A stretch of 64,000 nucleotides of DNA, from IMG/VR virus record IMGVR_UViG_3300027798_006580; one strand, written 5' to 3'. This DNA comes from a virus. Shown here piece after piece: positions 6,293 to 15,481 of the stretch. The notes under the pieces are model-generated. The model ran no database searches, was not told where the DNA came from, and saw only the letters and a program-made list of their open reading frames with translations. Made by a program: the position numbers and the translations under genes. Positions within the stretch are counted from its first letter, which is position 1; every line of letters starts with the position of its first letter.

Positions 6293-8437
6293 ATGAAATT
6301 CAAACCCACTCTAATTACTTTAGCAGTAGCGGCACTAGCAACAAGTGTGCAGGCCCAAGTTCTTACTAAAGAATTTTACAATGTCAAAGGTGCGTTGAAC
6401 ACGACTATGTATAACGCATATACCGGCACTGGTGTTACACTTACATGGGGTCGTAACATTACAGGCCTTGGTGTTAAGGTAGCAGTACTAGACAGCGGAT
6501 TTGACTTGTCTCACACAGACTTAAAAGGGCAAGTTATCGCGGCCAAGAACTTCAGTGAGATTGTTGTAGAAAATACAAAGACTAATCTAAATAACTTTAG
6601 GTCTAATATCCAAGTAGGTACAGACATTACTTGGAGTATGCACGGCACTCAGATGGCAAGTATTATTGCCGGCAAGTCGGATGGTAACGGCGCCGTAGGT
6701 GTTGCACCCGATGCTCGTCTATTGTTGGCACAGGTCGGTCAAGGTGTTACATATAACAGTAAAACAAAAACTTGGACATACAGTGGCACTGGCATTAGTG
6801 CCCCGGCATTGATTAATGCGCTGACTTGGGCAGAAGCCAATGGCGCCACAGTGGCCAATATGAGTCTTGGTAGCAGTTATGACAAGACATTCCAAAAAGG
6901 TGTGACACTATTGGGTAATGGTGTGTACAAGGCTCCTGTGGCATACGGTTCAATGTATGGTAACACTACAAAAGAATTAACAGCATTTGCTGGTGCAAGC
7001 AAGACCATGGCTCTTGTTGCCGCGGCAGGCAATGATGGTTTACCTTACGCACAATTTCCAGGTGCTTATGCTACTCAAGTAGACTCAAAAGGTAATTTGG
7101 TACTTGGTGGCAGAATGCTGATTGTAGGAAGTGTGGGAGATAACAATGTTATCAGTGGCTTCTCAAATCGTGCTGGTAGCTTTTGTACTGCCTTGTCAGG
7201 TACAACGTGTAAAGATCCTTACTATGTCAAAGACTTCTTTGTAGTAGCACCAGGTGAAGGCATTATTAGTGCTATACCCAATCAAGCCAAAGCAGGCAAT
7301 GTAGGCAATGCGGTTAGCGGCACAAGCCCAGCGGCAGCTTTTGTATCGGGCGGCATTGCACTTATGAAACAGGCTTGGCCACAACTTAGTGGTGCTCAAC
7401 TGGTTGATCTAGTTAAGACAACTGCCACAGACTTGGGCGCCAAAGGCGTAGATGAAGTTTATGGCTATGGTCTAGTTAATTTTAACAAAGCTACATTGCC
7501 AACAGGCACAGTAAAATATACAACAAGTTCGTTGTCATCGAGTTCAGTGACAACAGGCACGTCTGTGGTCAATGTTAGTATTAGTGCAACGGGTAGTTTG
7601 AATAGCGTTATGAAAGGTAGTAGTGTGCTGTCTAACGTACAAGTTGTTGACAACATTAATCGCAACTATACCGCAGACTTTACACGGGCAGTTGGTAACA
7701 GTAATCCAGTAAACAGTTTGGCAATGAGTCCTTATCTTGCCATGCAGGGCACAGGCTATCGTGAGTTTACAGTTCCATTTAGTAAAACAGATTCTATGTC
7801 GGTTATGCAAAGTTCAAATGGCGTAGCGGCACAATATGAAACAGCATATGACAATACCAAAGTGTCCTTGCAAGTTGGTTCTATGACAGAAAGTAATGGC
7901 TTTCTAAACAACTATGGTTCTGGACTTACTGCTTTTGGCGACAGTGGTACAACTTGGGCCTTGGTTGGTGGTGAGAAAGATATTGGCTCAAACTTTAGCA
8001 TATTAGGTAACTATGGTGTTGGCATTACAAAAACTGGTAGTGTGCAAAACAGCATGATTGCATTGAGTCCTACTTTGGTCAGTGACACTTGGAAATTTGG
8101 TATTGCCAAAAACAATATCTTCTTTAGCGGCAAGACCAATGACAAGTTGTCGTTAAGTGTACAAGGTCCTGTGGCAGTTCGTCGAGGTCATGCAGACGTT
8201 ACAGCGATTACTGGCTATAACTACAGCACAGACGCAGAAGACAATACAACTGCCACACCAATTAGTTCCTCAGAACGGATGAACTTGGCATCCGGTAAAC
8301 GTGAGACTAACTTAATACTTGGCTATAATGTGCAAGTACAAAACCAAACGTATGTAGGTTTTGCAGTAGGACGCCAGTTTAACGCTAATGGTGTAAATGC
8401 TAACACGGTTGCGTTCACTGCTAGAAGTGTGTTCTAA
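6293..8437 (+). CDS. Secreted subtilisin-like S8 serine protease with a probable C-terminal beta-barrel
   Basis: Signal peptide; catalytic motifs VAVLDSG, HGT.MASII, AAAGN, SGTS.AA; amphipathic strands ending ..FTARSVF. Confidence 0.85.
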   Translation: MKFKPTLITLAVAALATSVQAQVLTKEFYNVKGALNTTMYNAYTGTGVTLTWGRNITGLGVKVAVLDSGFDLSHTDLKGQVIAAKNFSEIVVENTKTNLNNFRSNIQVGTDITWSMHGTQMASIIAGKSDGNGAVGVAPDARLLLAQVGQGVTYNSKTKTWTYSGTGISAPALINALTWAEANGATVANMSLGSSYDKTFQKGVTLLGNGVYKAPVAYGSMYGNTTKELTAFAGASKTMALVAAAGNDGLPYAQFPGAYATQVDSKGNLVLGGRMLIVGSVGDNNVISGFSNRAGSFCTALSGTTCKDPYYVKDFFVVAPGEGIISAIPNQAKAGNVGNAVSGTSPAAAFVSGGIALMKQAWPQLSGAQLVDLVKTTATDLGAKGVDEVYGYGLVNFNKATLPTGTVKYTTSSLSSSSVTTGTSVVNVSISATGSLNSVMKGSSVLSNVQVVDNINRNYTADFTRAVGNSNPVNSLAMSPYLAMQGTGYREFTVPFSKTDSMSVMQSSNGVAAQYETAYDNTKVSLQVGSMTESNGFLNNYGSGLTAFGDSGTTWALVGGEKDIGSNFSILGNYGVGITKTGSVQNSMIALSPTLVSDTWKFGIAKNNIFFSGKTNDKLSLSVQGPVAVRRGHADVTAITGYNYSTDAEDNTTATPISSSERMNLASGKRETNLILGYNVQVQNQTYVGFAVGRQFNANGVNANTVAFTARSVF

Positions 8438-8560
8438 TTGACAGAATTTGAATTTAATGTTATAATTATTGCATAACGTAGAATAAGCTACGTTATGCTT
8501 TATAGGTCGAGTATGACCGAAACCCAGGGCGAGTTTGCCCGCTAAAAAGGAAATTTACTT

Positions 8561-9706
8561 ATGACAACTATTACCCACGCTCAAACTATTAACGGGCGTT
8601 ATCTAAAATCTACCAGCCACTTCGTTTCTTTACAACAACGTCTTGCAGATGCGCTGAAATCTTCTCCAGTATTTGTAAATATGCTGACTGCAATGGTTGA
8701 CGAGTATAAACGTCGACATGCCAGCTGGGCAAAGTTTTCCGACATGAAACTTTGTGAAGCAATCCAAGTTCCAATGGACAAAATCCTAATTGACAGTACT
8801 ATGCAACGTAGTTTGAATCTCCGCCACGTATTGAATATTCTACAGAACTTTAAAAGTAGTATGGTGATGGCAATTCAAGTGTATGTAGACGAAAACAAAC
8901 CTGGTTATTATATTGCATGGGAGGGTCAACATACTGCTATTGCTTTGCATATTATTCTAACAAAAGTATTTGGCGAGCAGACAGCTAACGCCATGATCCC
9001 AGTTGTGATTTACAATGTCAAACAGAAATTGGAAATTCGTCGTAACTTTATTTTGCTTAATGGCGATGCCAAGGAAGAACTAGACTTTATTGACAAGTAT
9101 ATCCAAATGGTATTTGGTGTTAAGATTGATAAGGCAGATGACCAAGAATGGATTGACACAGCCCTTAAGAATGACTACTTTGCCGCCGCAGGATTGTTTG
9201 CCACACATAGTAAGTTTGGGGATGAAGACCAACCAGGCGCATTCACTTTGTTAGCCGATACTCTTATGAGCAAGAGTTTGAAGACACGCAAGCATCCAGA
9301 GGTTACTCGTATGTTTGCACAGTATTGGAGTTTCTTAAATCAACAACGTCCCGTCGAGCCTAAAGAAGCTAGACAGTTATATGAGTACTTTAATTTGTGT
9401 TATGAACAAAAGATTGCAGTTGACGAAAAATATTTGCTAGAGTTTGTAGCATTTACCAAAGACAACTTTGAAGCAGACTTTAGTCCTACAAGTCCATTCT
9501 GGGACAAAGTTAAAGCGTCTTACGAATCGTGGTACGCTAAGGCTAATCCTGAATCATTTGCAGAGTTTGGCTTGAAAGGCTTTACTACAGAAATGCGTAC
9601 AGGTATTCCGTTTTTAATTGCACAACTTAAAAAGAGTACTAAATTAAAAGTGCCCGCATTTACTCCTAACAATGGCTTTACTATTAACAAAAAGGACTTG
9701 TGGTAA
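8561..9706 (+). CDS. ParB/Srx-like (DGQH-type) domain protein
   Basis: ID.TMQR.LN and AWEGQHT resemble ParB/DndB-type NTPase motifs. Confidence 0.55.
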   Translation: MTTITHAQTINGRYLKSTSHFVSLQQRLADALKSSPVFVNMLTAMVDEYKRRHASWAKFSDMKLCEAIQVPMDKILIDSTMQRSLNLRHVLNILQNFKSSMVMAIQVYVDENKPGYYIAWEGQHTAIALHIILTKVFGEQTANAMIPVVIYNVKQKLEIRRNFILLNGDAKEELDFIDKYIQMVFGVKIDKADDQEWIDTALKNDYFAAAGLFATHSKFGDEDQPGAFTLLADTLMSKSLKTRKHPEVTRMFAQYWSFLNQQRPVEPKEARQLYEYFNLCYEQKIAVDEKYLLEFVAFTKDNFEADFSPTSPFWDKVKASYESWYAKANPESFAEFGLKGFTTEMRTGIPFLIAQLKKSTKLKVPAFTPNNGFTINKKDLW

Positions 9707-9707
9707 T

Positions 9708-10160
9708 ATGACTACGTTTAGAAACTCTAACAAAGACAAGCTCAAAAGTCAGAGTATTCTCAAAGAACAGTATAGATTAGAATGTAAATGTAGATTGGAA
9801 GATTGTGATAATGATCTTACAATTTTTGATGGGCCAGGCAGCGATGGTTTCTGCCGTGAACATCAACTTCAACTTACAGACTATGAAGGCGGAATGGGAA
9901 AAGCAGATCGCCCACATACATTTTACAGAGGCTGGCTTTGTGAGAAGTGTGGATATGATCCAAGAGAAGATAGTCAGTTTGATGACATTGAAGATCCATT
10001 CCATAAACTTCGTTGTATGCGTGGCGTAATGCACGGAGATCATTTGGAACGTAAAAGTGACGGTGGCGCAGATACCGCAGAGAACATTCAAACTCTATGT
10101 TGTAGATGCCATATGATTAAAACATACAAAGAAAAGGATTACTTAAAAGGTAATAAATGA
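9708..10160 (+). CDS. HNH endonuclease-like Zn-binding protein
   Basis: CEKCG...GDHLERKSDGG....NIQTLCCRCH. Confidence 0.8.
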   Translation: MTTFRNSNKDKLKSQSILKEQYRLECKCRLEDCDNDLTIFDGPGSDGFCREHQLQLTDYEGGMGKADRPHTFYRGWLCEKCGYDPREDSQFDDIEDPFHKLRCMRGVMHGDHLERKSDGGADTAENIQTLCCRCHMIKTYKEKDYLKGNK

Positions 10161-10211: not shown

Positions 10212-11672
10212 ATGTCTATGACATCTTGTACAATACATATTAAAGACGAAGTTAACATTAAGATATCTGACCTTGTAACTGCAACTAGGCGTAAACTAGA
10301 AAAAGAATTAAAATACTTCCAGCCCTGGGCTTACCATAGTCCAGCATATAAGCTAGGACGTTGGGATGGTTGCGTTAGTTACTTTAGTCTAGGCGGTAGC
10401 ACTTACTTTAACTTATTAGACAGAATACTTCCTATCCTAGTAGACGAAGGATACAACATTGAAATTGATGACCAAAGAACTAATCATAACTTTCAATTCC
10501 TTGAAGTAACTGAAACAACTCATGAACAAACTATTTGGCCCAAAGGTCACGTCAACGAAGGACAGCCAGTATTGCTACGTGACTATCAAGTTGATGCTAT
10601 TAATAAGTTTCTAAATAACTTACAATGTGTACAAGAGATTAGTACGGGTGCTGGTAAAACAATTACAACAGCAACGTTATCCGGAAGTGTGCAGGACTAT
10701 GGAAGAACGTTGATTATTGTTCCTAACAAAGATCTAGTCAAACAGACATTAGAAGATTATGAATTGTTAGGACTCGACGTAGGCGTTTACTTTGGCGATA
10801 AAAAAGAACTGGGTAAGACACATACCATCTGCACATGGCAAAGTCTTAATGTATTAGAAAAACGTTTTAAAGATGGACTCAGTCCTTTAAGTTTAGAAGA
10901 GTTTGGTCAAGATCTAGTAGCAATTATTGTTGACGAAGTACATCAAGCCAAGGCAGATGTGCTTAAAGCATTGCTTAGTGGTCCATTCGCCAATGTTCCT
11001 ATTCGTTGGGGATTGACTGGAACTATTCCTAAAGAAGACTTTGAGCGAGTTGGATTGATTGCAACCTTGGGTCCTGTGGTGAATAAGATTGCTGCCAAGG
11101 ATCTACAGGACCAAGGAGTACTAGCCAACTGCACAGTCAACATTGTACAACTACAAGAGACAGCACAATATCAGACATATCAGGAAGAACTAACATTTTT
11201 AACTACCAATGTTCGTCGCATAGATTTCATTGCAGAGTTTGTAAAAAGTCTTGCTTTGTCAGGGAACACATTAGTATTAGTAGATAGAATTAAAGCAGGT
11301 GAATTACTCTGTGAAAGGATTACAGATAGTGTATTCGTCAGCGGCGCAATGAAAACAACAGATAGAAAAGAACACTATGATGAAATTAAAGACAGCGATG
11401 GCAAGGTTATTGTGGCGACTTATGGTGTGGCCTCTGTGGGTATTAATATTCCTCGTATTTTTAATCTGGTTCTTTTGGAGCCCGGAAAGAGCTTTGTCCG
11501 CGTTATACAAAGTATTGGCCGAGGCATTAGACGTGCTCAAGATAAAGACCATGTAGAAATTTGGGACTTGACGTCAAGTGCAAAGTTTAGTAAGAAGCAT
11601 CTTACTACAAGAAAGAAATACTATGAGGAAGCTGGCTATCCTTATAAAATCGAGAAAGTAAAATACCTATGA
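10212..11672 (+). CDS. uvsW: UvsW-like SF2 DNA helicase (start may be 10218)
   Basis: LRDYQ, TGAGKT, DEVH, GLTGT, QSIGRG.R. Confidence 0.9.
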   Translation: MSMTSCTIHIKDEVNIKISDLVTATRRKLEKELKYFQPWAYHSPAYKLGRWDGCVSYFSLGGSTYFNLLDRILPILVDEGYNIEIDDQRTNHNFQFLEVTETTHEQTIWPKGHVNEGQPVLLRDYQVDAINKFLNNLQCVQEISTGAGKTITTATLSGSVQDYGRTLIIVPNKDLVKQTLEDYELLGLDVGVYFGDKKELGKTHTICTWQSLNVLEKRFKDGLSPLSLEEFGQDLVAIIVDEVHQAKADVLKALLSGPFANVPIRWGLTGTIPKEDFERVGLIATLGPVVNKIAAKDLQDQGVLANCTVNIVQLQETAQYQTYQEELTFLTTNVRRIDFIAEFVKSLALSGNTLVLVDRIKAGELLCERITDSVFVSGAMKTTDRKEHYDEIKDSDGKVIVATYGVASVGINIPRIFNLVLLEPGKSFVRVIQSIGRGIRRAQDKDHVEIWDLTSSAKFSKKHLTTRKKYYEEAGYPYKIEKVKYL

Positions 11673-12169
11673 ACATACTAACTTCTAATAATGAAGCATT
11701 TGAGTTAAACTCGTTGCCCGAGGAAGTAGAAGATCTACGTTATGGAGTTCTTGATTGGAATGATCCTAAAAACGTTGACTATCATTTTGTGCCACTTATC
11801 TTCATGGAAACATTTCACGCACCTGCGGCAGTATTAAAAATAGGTGATCATATTATACAAGTGCCCTTGGATTGGTACGTTGTCATTGGCGAAAAAGATC
11901 ATGGAGATCCGGAGATTGTTCCTATCATGAATATCAATGACCGTGGTTTTAGTGCGTTTGCTTTTAATCCTATTAGTAGTTTTAGATTAGATTTTCAACC
12001 ATTAGAAATTATCAACGTGTTTCAAGACATTCGTTGGTATACTCCTAAACTTAAACATGGACATATTCTAGCAGTGCCTTTGGAAACAGGTTTCAAGCCT
12101 TTATGTGCTTACTTTGTCAAAGAAACTACCAAGCTACCGGAAGTATTATCCATAGACAAAATGTATTAA
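11669..12169 (+). CDS. Phage hypothetical protein
   Basis: 166 aa, ATGA-coupled to uvsW. Confidence 0.7.
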   Translation: MNILTSNNEAFELNSLPEEVEDLRYGVLDWNDPKNVDYHFVPLIFMETFHAPAAVLKIGDHIIQVPLDWYVVIGEKDHGDPEIVPIMNINDRGFSAFAFNPISSFRLDFQPLEIINVFQDIRWYTPKLKHGHILAVPLETGFKPLCAYFVKETTKLPEVLSIDKMY

Positions 12170-12186
12170 ACAGCGTATAATACAGT

Positions 12187-12672
12187 ATGGCAACAAAAGC
12201 TCCTATGTTAGATATGTTTAATCGAGTACTTCCAGCTTTGGATACTCGCAACAAAAAACTCTACGAAAATCTCAGTGAAGAAGAACAGAAAGGGTTTAGT
12301 CCCTGGCTTGTTCAACGATATTTGAGCAGTGCCGAAAGTGCTAACAATGCTGTCATTGAACATTACTTGATTATGACCAATGACATTGTTAATGTCAACT
12401 TCAGTGAAGTCAAAGATCCTGAAATGACTTGGAAGTTAATGAGCATGGTGGGCATTGGTAAAAGTCTCAAGCATCCATACATTGCTCCAAGCGGCGGTAA
12501 GAGAAAAAAGAAAAATGCTTTTAGAGCCTGGCTACGTGAACAGTATCCGCACTTAGATGATCAAGAATTAGATATCTGGATCAGTAACTTAGATAAAAAA
12601 TCCGCCAAGGATATGTTGGAACAATACCATGTTAAAGACAAAGATGTTATCTCTAGTGCAAATGACTTATAA
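12187..12672 (+). CDS. Putative clamp-loader small subunit, T4 gp62-like
   Basis: F.PWLVQRYLS motif resembles gp62 N-terminus; size and replication context fit. Confidence 0.5.
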   Translation: MATKAPMLDMFNRVLPALDTRNKKLYENLSEEEQKGFSPWLVQRYLSSAESANNAVIEHYLIMTNDIVNVNFSEVKDPEMTWKLMSMVGIGKSLKHPYIAPSGGKRKKKNAFRAWLREQYPHLDDQELDIWISNLDKKSAKDMLEQYHVKDKDVISSANDL

Positions 12673-13342
12673 ATGTAAATTTTGTAATAAAGATTTTGTG
12701 CGTGAAACTACTCTTATGTCTCACTTATGTGAGAAAAAGCGTAGAATGATGGAAAAAGATTCCAAGCAAAATCGTATTGCTTATCAAAGCTGGCTTATAT
12801 ATCGTAAAATGATTATTGCCAACGTCAAGCACGACAAGCCCTATGAAGACTTTATCAGTGATAGATACTATCTCGACTTCATGAAAGTGTCCAAGCATAT
12901 CATTGATTTGAACTTGGACAAGCCGGAAGAATTTGTTAGATTTGTTTTAAAAAATGCTGTTAAGATTGATGACTGGTGTAAAGCAGTTGTCTACGAAACT
13001 TACGTTAAAGATACAACCAAAAAAGAAACAGTAGAGCGAGCAATTGAGCGAAGTTTGTTAAATATGAAAGCCTGGGCAGAAAAGACTGGATATAATTGGA
13101 GTGAATACTTTGCTAGAGTTAGCACAGTGGATGCAGTACAAGATATCAGAATGGGTCGTATCAGTCCGTGGTGTACCTTTGCTACAGATCAAGGTAGCAG
13201 ATTAATTGATAGGTTTGAACCTGGCCAGGTTCAGACATTGATAGATTACATTGAGCCTTTATCATGGAAGGCCAGAGTAAAACGTCAGCAGGGTGATGCT
13301 GATTGGGTGCAGGAAGTTTTTAACAAGGCGGAAATTAAATGA
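12662..13342 (+). CDS. C2H2-type Zn-finger protein
   Basis: YKCKFCNKDF..E..L..H.C. Confidence 0.65.
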   Translation: MTYKCKFCNKDFVRETTLMSHLCEKKRRMMEKDSKQNRIAYQSWLIYRKMIIANVKHDKPYEDFISDRYYLDFMKVSKHIIDLNLDKPEEFVRFVLKNAVKIDDWCKAVVYETYVKDTTKKETVERAIERSLLNMKAWAEKTGYNWSEYFARVSTVDAVQDIRMGRISPWCTFATDQGSRLIDRFEPGQVQTLIDYIEPLSWKARVKRQQGDADWVQEVFNKAEIK

Positions 13343-13572
13343 ATCAATACAAGCAACGAGCAGTACCAGCATTGCTGAAAAGCAGTACAGTACAAGAAGC
13401 ACGGGTTAGACTAATCAACGACATGGTTGAGATAGAAATGAATGGTTCCAGAGTAGTGGTACCCACTGCTGAGTCATATCAACGCTTGCTCAAAAAGGTT
13501 GCAGTGTTGGAACAAAAACTGTATGCTACTGATAACAAAGCAAACAGAGTCGCCAGGATGAACAATGAGTAA
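13339..13572 (+). CDS. Hypothetical coiled-coil protein
   Basis: 77 aa, overlapping operon packing. Confidence 0.6.
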   Translation: MNQYKQRAVPALLKSSTVQEARVRLINDMVEIEMNGSRVVVPTAESYQRLLKKVAVLEQKLYATDNKANRVARMNNE

Positions 13573-13795
13573 AGAAGATCATAAATTAGAAGATATCTAT
13601 AATGAAGTTATATTAGTTATAGAAAAATTATTAAACAAAGAGCATGATCCGTTGGCAGTGGCCGCAGTATTTGCCAGCCAAGCACTGGGATTATATAAAA
13701 CGGTGTTAAGTGACAAAGACTATAATACTATGGTTGATAGTATTGTTGATAAAAAAGATAGAGTACAGCCTTTTGAATCTAGGAGTTTACATTGA
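13565..13795 (+). CDS. Hypothetical protein
   Basis: 76 aa, overlapping operon packing. Confidence 0.6.
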   Translation: MSKEDHKLEDIYNEVILVIEKLLNKEHDPLAVAAVFASQALGLYKTVLSDKDYNTMVDSIVDKKDRVQPFESRSLH

Positions 13796-14370
13796 GCTTT
13801 GACGTTGACATAGACTTTGCAGATAGAGAACAAATTCTTAAATTAGTAGTGCATACTGCGGCCATGCAAAAAGAAGGCACGAAAGAACGTAAGCATAACA
13901 CAGGCGTTTACTTTCATCACGTACCCACCAATCCGTTCACGGGATTATCTACAATAGATTATAAACAAGCAGAAAACATAGGCTGGTTTAAGATCGACTT
14001 GCTCAACGTTGGTATCTACAGTAACTTTGCCAGTAACGAGCAGATAGATGAGTTATTAGACAAAGAGCCGATGTGGGAATTATTAGAACACAAGGAAGTT
14101 ATTCAACAGTTGTTTCATATTCACAATCACAGTGATACAGTTATTAGAATGAAGCCAAGAAGTATTGAGCAACTTGCCATGGTATTGGCAGTTATACGTC
14201 CTGGTAAGAAACATTTAATTGGACGTAGTTGGAGTGAGATAGAAAAAGAAGTATGGACTAAAACAGAAGATGTTTATAGTTTTAAGAAGAGTCATGCCAT
14301 TGGGTATTCGGCGGCCATTGCATTACAGCTCAATCAATTAGCTTACAGTATTAACAGTGGCAAGTCCTAA
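13792..14370 (+). CDS. Miniature DnaE (Pol III alpha)-like protein
   Basis: DVDIDF, RKH.TGV, FKIDLL, PRSIEQLA..LA.IRPG, YSFKKSHA..Y; AGGAG RBS before TTG. Confidence 0.75.
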   Translation: MSFDVDIDFADREQILKLVVHTAAMQKEGTKERKHNTGVYFHHVPTNPFTGLSTIDYKQAENIGWFKIDLLNVGIYSNFASNEQIDELLDKEPMWELLEHKEVIQQLFHIHNHSDTVIRMKPRSIEQLAMVLAVIRPGKKHLIGRSWSEIEKEVWTKTEDVYSFKKSHAIGYSAAIALQLNQLAYSINSGKS

Positions 14371-15048
14371 TAGACCGAGAGTTTTGATATAGAACCATCC
14401 CATATCAAATTCAAACCAGCGTTTACTTAACTTTGCACTAGCCGGAGTCATGTGGTGGTTGTTGTGCAATTCTTCGCCGCCGATCCATATAGCCCATGGT
14501 ATTAAATTAGTGCTACGGTCTTTTGTGGCACCATTTCTATATCCCCACCAGTGACCCAATCCATTAATAACTCCTGCCGCCCAAAAAGGTATCCATAACA
14601 TCTGTACTGCCCATATGACAAATCCCATCCATCCGAATATCAATACATTAATAGCCATCATTAGAATCACTCCTGCGTAATTATAGGGAGTGTACAATTT
14701 TTGTTCAATCCAGTCATCGGGTGTTCCCCTGCCAAAACTCACTATCATTTTTGCATTTTTCCCCGACAAATAATAATAGTAAACACCTCTGAACAGTATG
14801 TTTAAAATTCCATGTACATGAGGACTATGTGGATCGCCTTCTTTATCAGTTGTGCTGTGATGTTTTCTATGTATTGCTACCCATTGTTTAGTAATCATGC
14901 CAGTGGTTAACCATAGCCATAATCTAAAAAAATGTTCAACAACGGGATGAAATGTAACTGATTTATGTGCTTGACTTCTGTGTAAAAAACAGGTCACAGA
15001 GACAATGGTGATGTGGGTAAGTATAAGAGCATATAGTATTTCTAGCAT
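14338..15048 (-). CDS. Membrane fatty-acid desaturase, delta-9/DesA-like
   Basis: His boxes HRSQAH, HRKHH, HNNHH; transmembrane segments. Confidence 0.9.
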   Translation of the reverse strand: MLEILYALILTHITIVSVTCFLHRSQAHKSVTFHPVVEHFFRLWLWLTTGMITKQWVAIHRKHHSTTDKEGDPHSPHVHGILNILFRGVYYYYLSGKNAKMIVSFGRGTPDDWIEQKLYTPYNYAGVILMMAINVLIFGWMGFVIWAVQMLWIPFWAAGVINGLGHWWGYRNGATKDRSTNLIPWAIWIGGEELHNNHHMTPASAKLSKRWFEFDMGWFYIKTLGLLGLATVNTVS

Positions 15049-15061
15049 ACATGTACTTATC

Positions 15062-15430
15062 TTATAATTTTTGAACTAGCTGGATTTGACGACGTTTGAT
15101 ACGTTTGGTGATAATGTTTTGTAGACTAACTGCTTCACCGTGTAGCAATTCAAAATCCTTGACATTATATGTTCGGAGACTATAGCTAAACTGTTTAAAT
15201 TTAGGGCCTATAAACAAATTAATTGGTAGCTGTCTATTACTTTGCCACCACCATTCTTCTCCGCACTCTAGGAATTCTTGGCGATCTTCGACACAGTTTA
15301 ATACGTTTAACACATATATACTGGTTAGAGTTTGAGTATAGTTCTGTATTATACCTATGACTTCGTCTTCCCCTGCCCTGCATAGGCTTAAGAAAGGGAA
15401 TTTTTCTAATATTTCTTTGTGATCTGACAT
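15062..15430 (-). CDS. Phage hypothetical protein
   Basis: 122 aa; TAAATA box 6 nt upstream of ATG. Confidence 0.65.
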   Translation of the reverse strand: MSDHKEILEKFPFLSLCRAGEDEVIGIIQNYTQTLTSIYVLNVLNCVEDRQEFLECGEEWWWQSNRQLPINLFIGPKFKQFSYSLRTYNVKDFELLHGEAVSLQNIITKRIKRRQIQLVQKL

Positions 15431-15481
15431 TGTCAATATTTAGCAGCCATTTCAATTCAATTAATTTAAATAAATATAACT

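Follow-up and report, generated by a model that had tools for sequence, protein, structure and literature searches.

An uncultured freshwater phage lineage encodes the C-terminal unit of a split minimal DNA polymerase III alpha

Introduction

A split minimal DNA polymerase III alpha (Pol III alpha) has been described from sequence in the group 2.2 (RaK2/PA5oct-like) jumbo phages, where it occurs beside a family B polymerase, with its role left undecided between strand synthesis and repair and with the suggestion that it may be a relic close to the ancestral core of the family C polymerases (Iyer, Anantharaman, Krishnan, Burroughs, Aravind 2021, Viruses 13:63, PMC7824862). The known members comprise a C-terminal unit (C-unit; phrog_11778), represented by PA5oct gp264 and RaK2 ORF124, and an N-terminal unit (N-unit; phrog_11127), represented by PA5oct gp196 and RaK2 ORF162. 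In our searches of the literature, we came across no biochemical or genetic work on the split enzyme. Here we examine a 192-amino-acid protein encoded in a 64,000-nucleotide stretch of viral DNA, IMG/VR record IMGVR_UViG_3300027798_006580 (hereafter the window), and show that it belongs to this system, which is already known from Iyer et al. 2021, with the window copy adding another lineage only.

The locus in the window resembles the described system in several respects. The protein belongs to the same family over its full length, the split point is the same, just before the catalytic DxD strand, and the gene order is shared, with an SF2 helicase, three conserved small genes, the C-unit, a convergent small gene, a structural gene, primase and DnaB. 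In the lineage, moreover, a family B polymerase occurs and the N-unit gene appears to lie at a distance from the C-unit. However, the C-unit in the window is only 36–51% identical to those of the cultured members and comes from an uncultured freshwater lineage, a desaturase gene has been inserted after the C-unit and two small ORFs before it, and the N-unit of the lineage is shorter (153–160 aa).

In cyanobacteria, a family C polymerase is also produced from two distant genes, with the DnaE-n and DnaE-c products being joined by protein trans-splicing. The phage system is similar in that its family C polymerase lies on two distant genes, but both phage pieces are drastically minimised and there is no intein, with the N-unit ending at ..EFLK and the C-unit starting 3 residues before DxDxD. 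These junction sequences leave no room for intein halves, and the pieces would therefore have to associate non-covalently. In agreement with the initial annotation of the window, which had noted no intein, we found no match to any intein/Hint family.

Among known family C polymerases, this family has the smallest version of the active site; the split passes through the catalytic sheet and involves no intein. Strong selection maintains the family in thousands of large phages that already have a family B replicase. The role of the split enzyme could bear on the origin of family C polymerases and on the division of labour at the jumbo-phage replication fork.

Results and Discussion

The C-unit gene retains the catalytic and finger motifs of DnaE

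The C-unit gene (13792..14370, + strand) encodes a 192-aa protein from a TTG start, and contains palm strands 2–5 with three catalytic aspartates, followed by a shortened finger domain. A Shine-Dalgarno sequence, GGAG (13782..13785, +), can be read directly from the sequence 6 nt before the TTG, and the start overlaps the stop of an upstream 76-aa ORF (TTGA, 13792-13795). In relatives the start codon is either TTG or ATG, at the same codon position. The N-terminus reads MSF-DVDIDF, such that the catalytic strand begins after 3 residues, and this is followed by KHNTGV (residues 34–39), KIDLL (67–71), LAVIRPG (132–138) and YSFKKSHAIGY (162–172). The ribosome-binding site, the intact frame, the start at DVDIDF and the retained motifs that had initially been annotated are all present in this sequence.

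We mapped these motifs onto E. coli DnaE, using the dnaE product from NC_000913.3 as reference. The metal-binding DxDxD strand, D4-V-D6-I-D8 (codons 13801..13815, +), corresponds to E. coli D401/D403/D405, and K67-I-D69 (codons 13990..13998, +), which holds the third catalytic aspartate, corresponds to K553 and D555. Within the finger domain, R136-P137-G138 (codons 14197..14205, +) is equivalent to E. coli RPG 639–641, and the finger motif Y162-S-F-K-K-S-H168 (codons 14275..14295, +) is equivalent to Y754 and FNKSH 756–760. Over longer stretches, the RPG region was aligned to E. coli DnaE 595–641, the YxFKKSH region to 753–767, and the KxD region, by profile, to Mycobacterium DnaE1 566–663. 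Residues D4, D6, D8, K67, D69, R136, P137, Y162, F164, K165 and H168 are invariant across 17–18 homologues, down to 42% identity, and because these key residues are both invariant and fall on the E. coli DnaE motifs, the motifs in the C-unit are not due to chance.

At the family level, the C-unit matched phrog_11778 ('DNA polymerase') with an E-value of 9e-65, covering protein residues 3–185 on profile positions 7–193 of 197, while the full-length DnaE-type family phrog_405 matched only weakly. A Pfam search gave a score of 14.1 bits for PF17657 (Pol III finger domain), which is below the gathering cut-off of 22, and no match for PF07733.

The C-unit has a Pol III alpha fold but holds only half of an active site

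An alignment-based AlphaFold2 model of the C-unit had a mean pLDDT of 84, and when it was searched against the PDB with Foldseek the top 15 matches were all Pol III alpha or PolC. Using VIA-align, the model superposed on Thermus (Taq) Pol III alpha (3e0d_A, residues 460–838) with a Z-score of 9.8 and an rmsd of 4.0 Å over 188 residues, on Mycobacterium DnaE1 (5lew, 418–811) with Z 9.2 and 4.1 Å over 187 residues, and on the E. coli enzyme (2hnh, 399–781) with Z 8.6 and 4.5 Å over 184 residues, whereas the best unrelated chain (319–390) reached Z 3.5 and 3.1 Å over 61 residues. The model therefore aligns solely to Pol III alpha, with the palm strands and their aspartates present, which bears out the comparison with DnaE that had been proposed as a check. 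By sequence, a profile search against solved structures gave an E-value of 0.01 to Mycobacterium DnaE1, in four collinear pieces, and a phmmer search of the PDB found nothing relevant.

The C-unit shares with bacterial DnaE (2HNH, 2HPI/3E0D, 5LEW) the Pol-beta-like palm, the aspartate triad, the KxD strand and the RPG and YxFNKSH motifs, with the fold aligning over nearly all 192 residues (Z 8.6–9.8). Unlike these enzymes, it does not reach Pfam gathering scores, it is without the PHP, thumb, clamp-binding, HhH, OB and tau-binding parts, and the first half of its palm is contributed by a second polypeptide. Its 192 residues cover a span of 383 residues in E. coli DnaE (399–781), with 59 residues separating DxDxD from KxD compared with 148 in E. 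coli, from which it follows that the thumb is missing, and with 24 residues separating RPG from YxF compared with 113. The initial annotation had described PHP, HhH and OB as absent, and we likewise found no PHP match and a protein that stops at the equivalent of residue ~781 of E. coli's 1160; more broadly, nothing in the C-unit matches the PHP, first palm half, clamp-binding, HhH or OB parts.

The C-unit starts at the equivalent of E. coli DnaE residue 398–401, and lacks the first palm strand and the GRGS nucleotide-binding helix. The earlier description of the 192-aa protein as a minimal polymerase core by itself must accordingly be revised, as it holds half an active site. We conclude that it represents the C-terminal part of a split minimal Pol III alpha, the unit that binds metal and template, and that the previous view of it as a compacted family C piece with catalytic aspartates and finger motifs is borne out by the phrog_11778 match, the Pol III alpha fold and the invariant residues.

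The missing palm half is encoded by a separate, distant gene

The missing half of the palm, which contains the nucleotide-binding GRGS motif, is a separate gene of ~150–177 aa belonging to phrog_11127. In Sinorhizobium phage Phosso, the phrog_405 profile also finds a 177-aa ORF, about 224 kb from the C-unit, with the match at profile positions 361–436, and this N-unit matches phrog_11127 with an E-value of 2e-50 and ends with ..VWGVGRGSSVASY..LIG.H.V.S..Y.LD..EFL. An HMM built from 84 N-unit proteins aligns to E. coli DnaE 321–392, with GRGS (361–364) inside the aligned region and the stop at FERFL (388–392), shortly ahead of the DFDVD motif at which the C-unit begins. As the N-unit stops at 392 and the C-unit begins at ~398–401, the split falls within the loop that leads into the catalytic strand, with no intein.

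We detected the N-unit in 101 phage records. Their tally by host is the same as for the C-unit, and both genes are carried by about 100 cultured jumbo phages. In cultured phages the N-unit sits between structural genes and a gp31-like co-chaperonin. Both units are also present in three complete IMG/VR genomes (G009, G010, G011), about 98–120 kb apart by the shorter way round, as applies to terminally repeated genomes.

The lineage of the window contains an N-unit

No N-unit was found in the window, either by tblastn with a phage N-unit or with the HMM of 84 N-units in six frames, and the positive controls for this HMM gave E-values of 1e-65 to 1e-70. This is consistent with the initial annotation, which had recorded no other part of DnaE in the window. 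A regular-expression search of the window for GRGS/FERF returned a single chance GKGS.

We extended the search to related records, of which G001, G002 and G003 have C-units that are 91%, 86% and 73% identical to that of the window, respectively. The nearest record, G001, gave nothing with PF07733, searches of G001–G004 with the Phosso N-unit and phrog_11127 gave nothing, and the N-unit HMM gave nothing against the window, G002, G003 and parts of G001. In total, about 290 kb of G001–G003, spanning about -201 to +77 kb around the C-unit, contain no N-unit. The clamp loader, co-chaperonin and PhoH genes are also absent from the same stretches, which suggests that all four lie together in one unsampled block. 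The C-unit closest to that of the window (P0016) is borne by a 335-kb contig. A contig walk downstream through a radical-SAM gene reached a contig end with no N-unit. Two N-unit contigs from the same samples as lineage members (G006, G007) were set aside as belonging to other phages, being only 30–65% related.

Contig walking identified a 349,206-bp JGI contig, Ga0492765_0000001, with a family B polymerase that shares 93% identity with its G002 counterpart. An N-unit of 153 aa (L182 8757-9218), with a stored PF07733 match and an HMM E-value of 1.6e-47, lies on this contig about 45 kb upstream of the polymerase gene. The gene order is SUF genes, three small ORFs, the 153-aa N-unit, a 126-aa ORF, a gp31-like co-chaperonin, the clamp loader and PhoH, and the N-unit falls in a 65-member cluster whose members are mostly named 'DNA polymerase III alpha subunit'. 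The C-unit of the 349-kb contig was not found among the 10 C-unit clusters that we looked through. Judged by sequence similarity, the lineage of the window has an N-unit partner, and it is very probable that the window's own genome also carries one.

Several other genes were observed on contigs of this lineage. The genes just upstream of the N-unit in Ga0492765_0000001 form a SUF-type gene cluster for iron-sulfur assembly (L182 3536-7907), encoding a SufB/D-like protein, a SufC-like ABC ATPase, a cysteine desulfurase, SufE and an FeS_assembly_P protein. Lineage contigs also encode a ClpB-like double-AAA chaperone of 733 aa (L181 10001-12202) and a 76-aa RNA polymerase omega-like protein of the Rpb6 family (L174 15100-15330).

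The two units occur as a natural fusion and are predicted to fit together

We identified a natural 375-aa fusion, P0474, in which the N-unit, a linker of ~10 residues and the C-unit are contained in one ORF (L186 1066-2193; ENA scaffold_211374) on a 2.4-kb metagenomic contig. The convergent ORF downstream of P0474 has its homologue at window 15062-15436, where the C-unit's usual neighbour is encoded, and the fusion is therefore at the C-unit locus. Among the best 150 representatives P0474 alone had the fused form and, unlike the system in the window, it is a single chain rather than split and is known from one contig only.

We also predicted a complex between the lineage N-unit (alignment A4) and the window C-unit (alignment A2). 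This gave an ipSAE of 0.88 (0.87, 0.88 and 0.88 in individual runs) against a best of three of 0.00 for the controls, although this score may reflect the model's memory of solved single-chain DnaE structures and speaks for a DnaE-like fit, not for binding. In calibration, 58 of 80 solved complexes reached this ipSAE mark, as did 2 of 110 mismatched pairs. The runs shared at least 86% of their contacts, and the partner pLDDT was at least 84. The predicted interface places N-unit residues 114–127, the strand before GRGS, against C-unit residues 2–11, the DVDIDF strand. Together with the single-chain fusion and the conserved position of the N-unit by the co-chaperonin and clamp loader, this predicted strand-to-strand interface provides a handle for work at the bench.

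An auxiliary DNA polymerase is the likely role of the assembled enzyme

We consider it likely that the gene in the window is the C-unit of a split minimal Pol III alpha that is completed by the distant N-unit and acts as an auxiliary polymerase. The C-unit would contribute the strands with DxDxD and KxD to a Pol-beta-like nucleotidyltransferase palm, together with shortened fingers carrying RPG and YxFKKSH. The N-unit (~150–177 aa, phrog_11127), encoded far from the C-unit beside the gp31-like co-chaperonin and the clamp loader, would supply the first strand and the GRGS triphosphate-binding helix. The halves most likely join through pairing of an N-unit strand (..IVYGVGRGSS..) with a C-unit strand (..DVDIDF..), which would create one active site of about 350 residues. 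Such an enzyme would work alongside the family B replicase as an auxiliary DNA polymerase that depends on a template and is probably distributive. Binding and activity of the pair, like its function in infection, are inferred here.

The surroundings of the C-unit are those of a T4-type replication module, with genes for gp32-like and UvsX/RecA-like proteins, an SF2 helicase, a Toprim primase and DnaB in the window, and with the family B polymerase (PF00136, PF03104) found in the related contigs G002, G003 and L177.

The same two-protein enzyme could instead be another nucleotidyltransferase of the Pol-beta fold rather than a DNA polymerase, with candidate activities that include tailing without a template, the filling of gaps or priming at recombination intermediates, and the production of a nucleotide signal or decoy. 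About half of DnaE 399–781 is deleted, the enzyme has no thumb, clamp binding or proofreading, a family B replicase is already present in the phage, and Iyer et al. 2021 (PMC7824862) did not choose between strand synthesis and repair. Without the thumb and clamp-binding parts, efficient DNA synthesis by the pair is not assured. However, the invariant RPG and YxFKKSH motifs are typical of Pol III alpha and are hard to explain without DnaE-type binding of template and dNTP. Furthermore, genes for helicase, primase, DnaB and SSB surround the C-unit, and the clamp loader gene is next to the N-unit. We regard it as unlikely that the ~350-residue pair of N-unit and C-unit is, rather than a helper of the replicase, a new DnaE-derived nucleotidyltransferase, acting in tailing, priming or as the source of an anti-defence signal or decoy, or a relic near the ancestral family C core.

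The neighbouring small proteins are not parts of DnaE

As one half of an active site the C-unit would require a partner, and the initial annotation had suggested that the 192-aa protein might work as a split enzyme with the small proteins encoded next to it (12187-13795). The idea of a split enzyme was sound, but the choice of the neighbours as its other part was not, as they have no DnaE or N-unit match and the partner is the distant phrog_11127 protein. It is very unlikely that the 192-aa protein is self-sufficient or is completed by these adjacent ORFs. All three catalytic aspartates are present in the C-unit, and three neighbours, with lengths of 166, 161 and about 230 aa (phrog_11279, phrog_11758 and phrog_11058), are conserved upstream of it throughout the phage group. 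However, the C-unit is without the hG[GS] strand-helix, an element required by all transferases of the Pol-beta fold. This element resides on a different conserved gene, which co-occurs with the C-unit and, in P0474, is joined to it. ORFs in the interval 11669-13795 matched neither DnaE families nor the N-unit HMM, and the 76- and 77-aa ORFs that precede the C-unit in the window are absent from this position in PA5oct and RaK2.

One of these neighbours is a 226-aa protein of the phrog_11058 family (12662-13342, +), with its start refined from a 237-aa ORF, the upstream ATG at 12629 probably not being the true start. Its model (pLDDT 91) shows an N-terminal C2H2-like zinc finger followed by an all-helical body and has no palm. 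A Foldseek search of the PDB gave no match with an E-value below 0.47, while a wide structural search gave Z-scores of 4.4 or less, including T4 gp59 (Z 4.2 over 95 residues) and HMG boxes (Z 3–4). These weak structural resemblances would fit a helicase loader, which the 226-aa protein may be.

The 76-aa ORF (13565..13795, +), whose stop overlaps the start of the C-unit, is considered here as context only. It also precedes the C-unit in the 335-kb relative (L053), and a homologue (36% identical) is present in G007 (8238-8507), where it directly precedes the clamp loader and follows the pair of N-unit and co-chaperonin at a distance of 0.8 kb. It is a small replication-module protein that is linked to either half of the enzyme in different phages.

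The C-unit is a conserved and complete gene

By tblastn, full-length C-unit homologues with 36–51% identity were found in 96 cultured jumbo-phage records, and the phages with a homologue were all jumbo phages of the RaK2, PA5oct, Atu_ph07, XacN1 and 121Q type. A large protein collection contained 4284 near-length homologues, and an exhaustive profile search over 1.8 billion representatives gave 530 clusters at 50% clustering, in which complete proteins are 183–219 aa in length and match from residue 1–10. In every homologue that was inspected, the DxDxD motif lies no more than 10 residues after the start. Pairwise comparison of the C-unit gene with nine relatives gave dN/dS values of 0.02–0.08. 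The low dN/dS together with the constant length and start therefore indicates a conserved, selected and complete gene with no decay, and the length conservation in related phages that had been proposed as a check on the gene extends to thousands of homologues, which have lengths of about 185–200 aa. Although the C-unit spans about a third of the DnaE length, as a fragment might, the selection and constancy just described, an intact frame with a ribosome-binding site and the lack of flanking DnaE remnants in the window by the N-unit HMM in six frames make a decaying piece of a once full-length phage dnaE exceedingly improbable.

Additional genes near the C-unit and in related phages

The gene inserted after the C-unit encodes a fatty-acid desaturase (window 14338-15048, −; PF00487, E 7e-14) and is located between the C-unit and its usual convergent neighbour, with its 3′ end overlapping the 3′ end of the C-unit by 33 nt. 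The same gene is present in L053, and is absent at the same place in PA5oct, RaK2 and Phosso. Further upstream in the window, an HNH endonuclease gene (9672-10160, +; PF01844, E 7e-9) is found directly upstream of the gene for the SF2 (UvsW-like) helicase.

We also observed a second type of reduced family C polymerase in a related record, G005 (L052, IMGVR_UViG_3300020442_002661). Here an unsplit, PHP-less DnaE-like protein is encoded on the minus strand (2-1261) right after DnaB, and this protein is at least 420 aa, as it runs off the contig end, with GSAGS, DVDIDF, KVD, IRP and GFGLCRAH all in one chain. G005 also has a mini C-unit, 48% identical, such that two different reduced family C polymerases are present in one phage.
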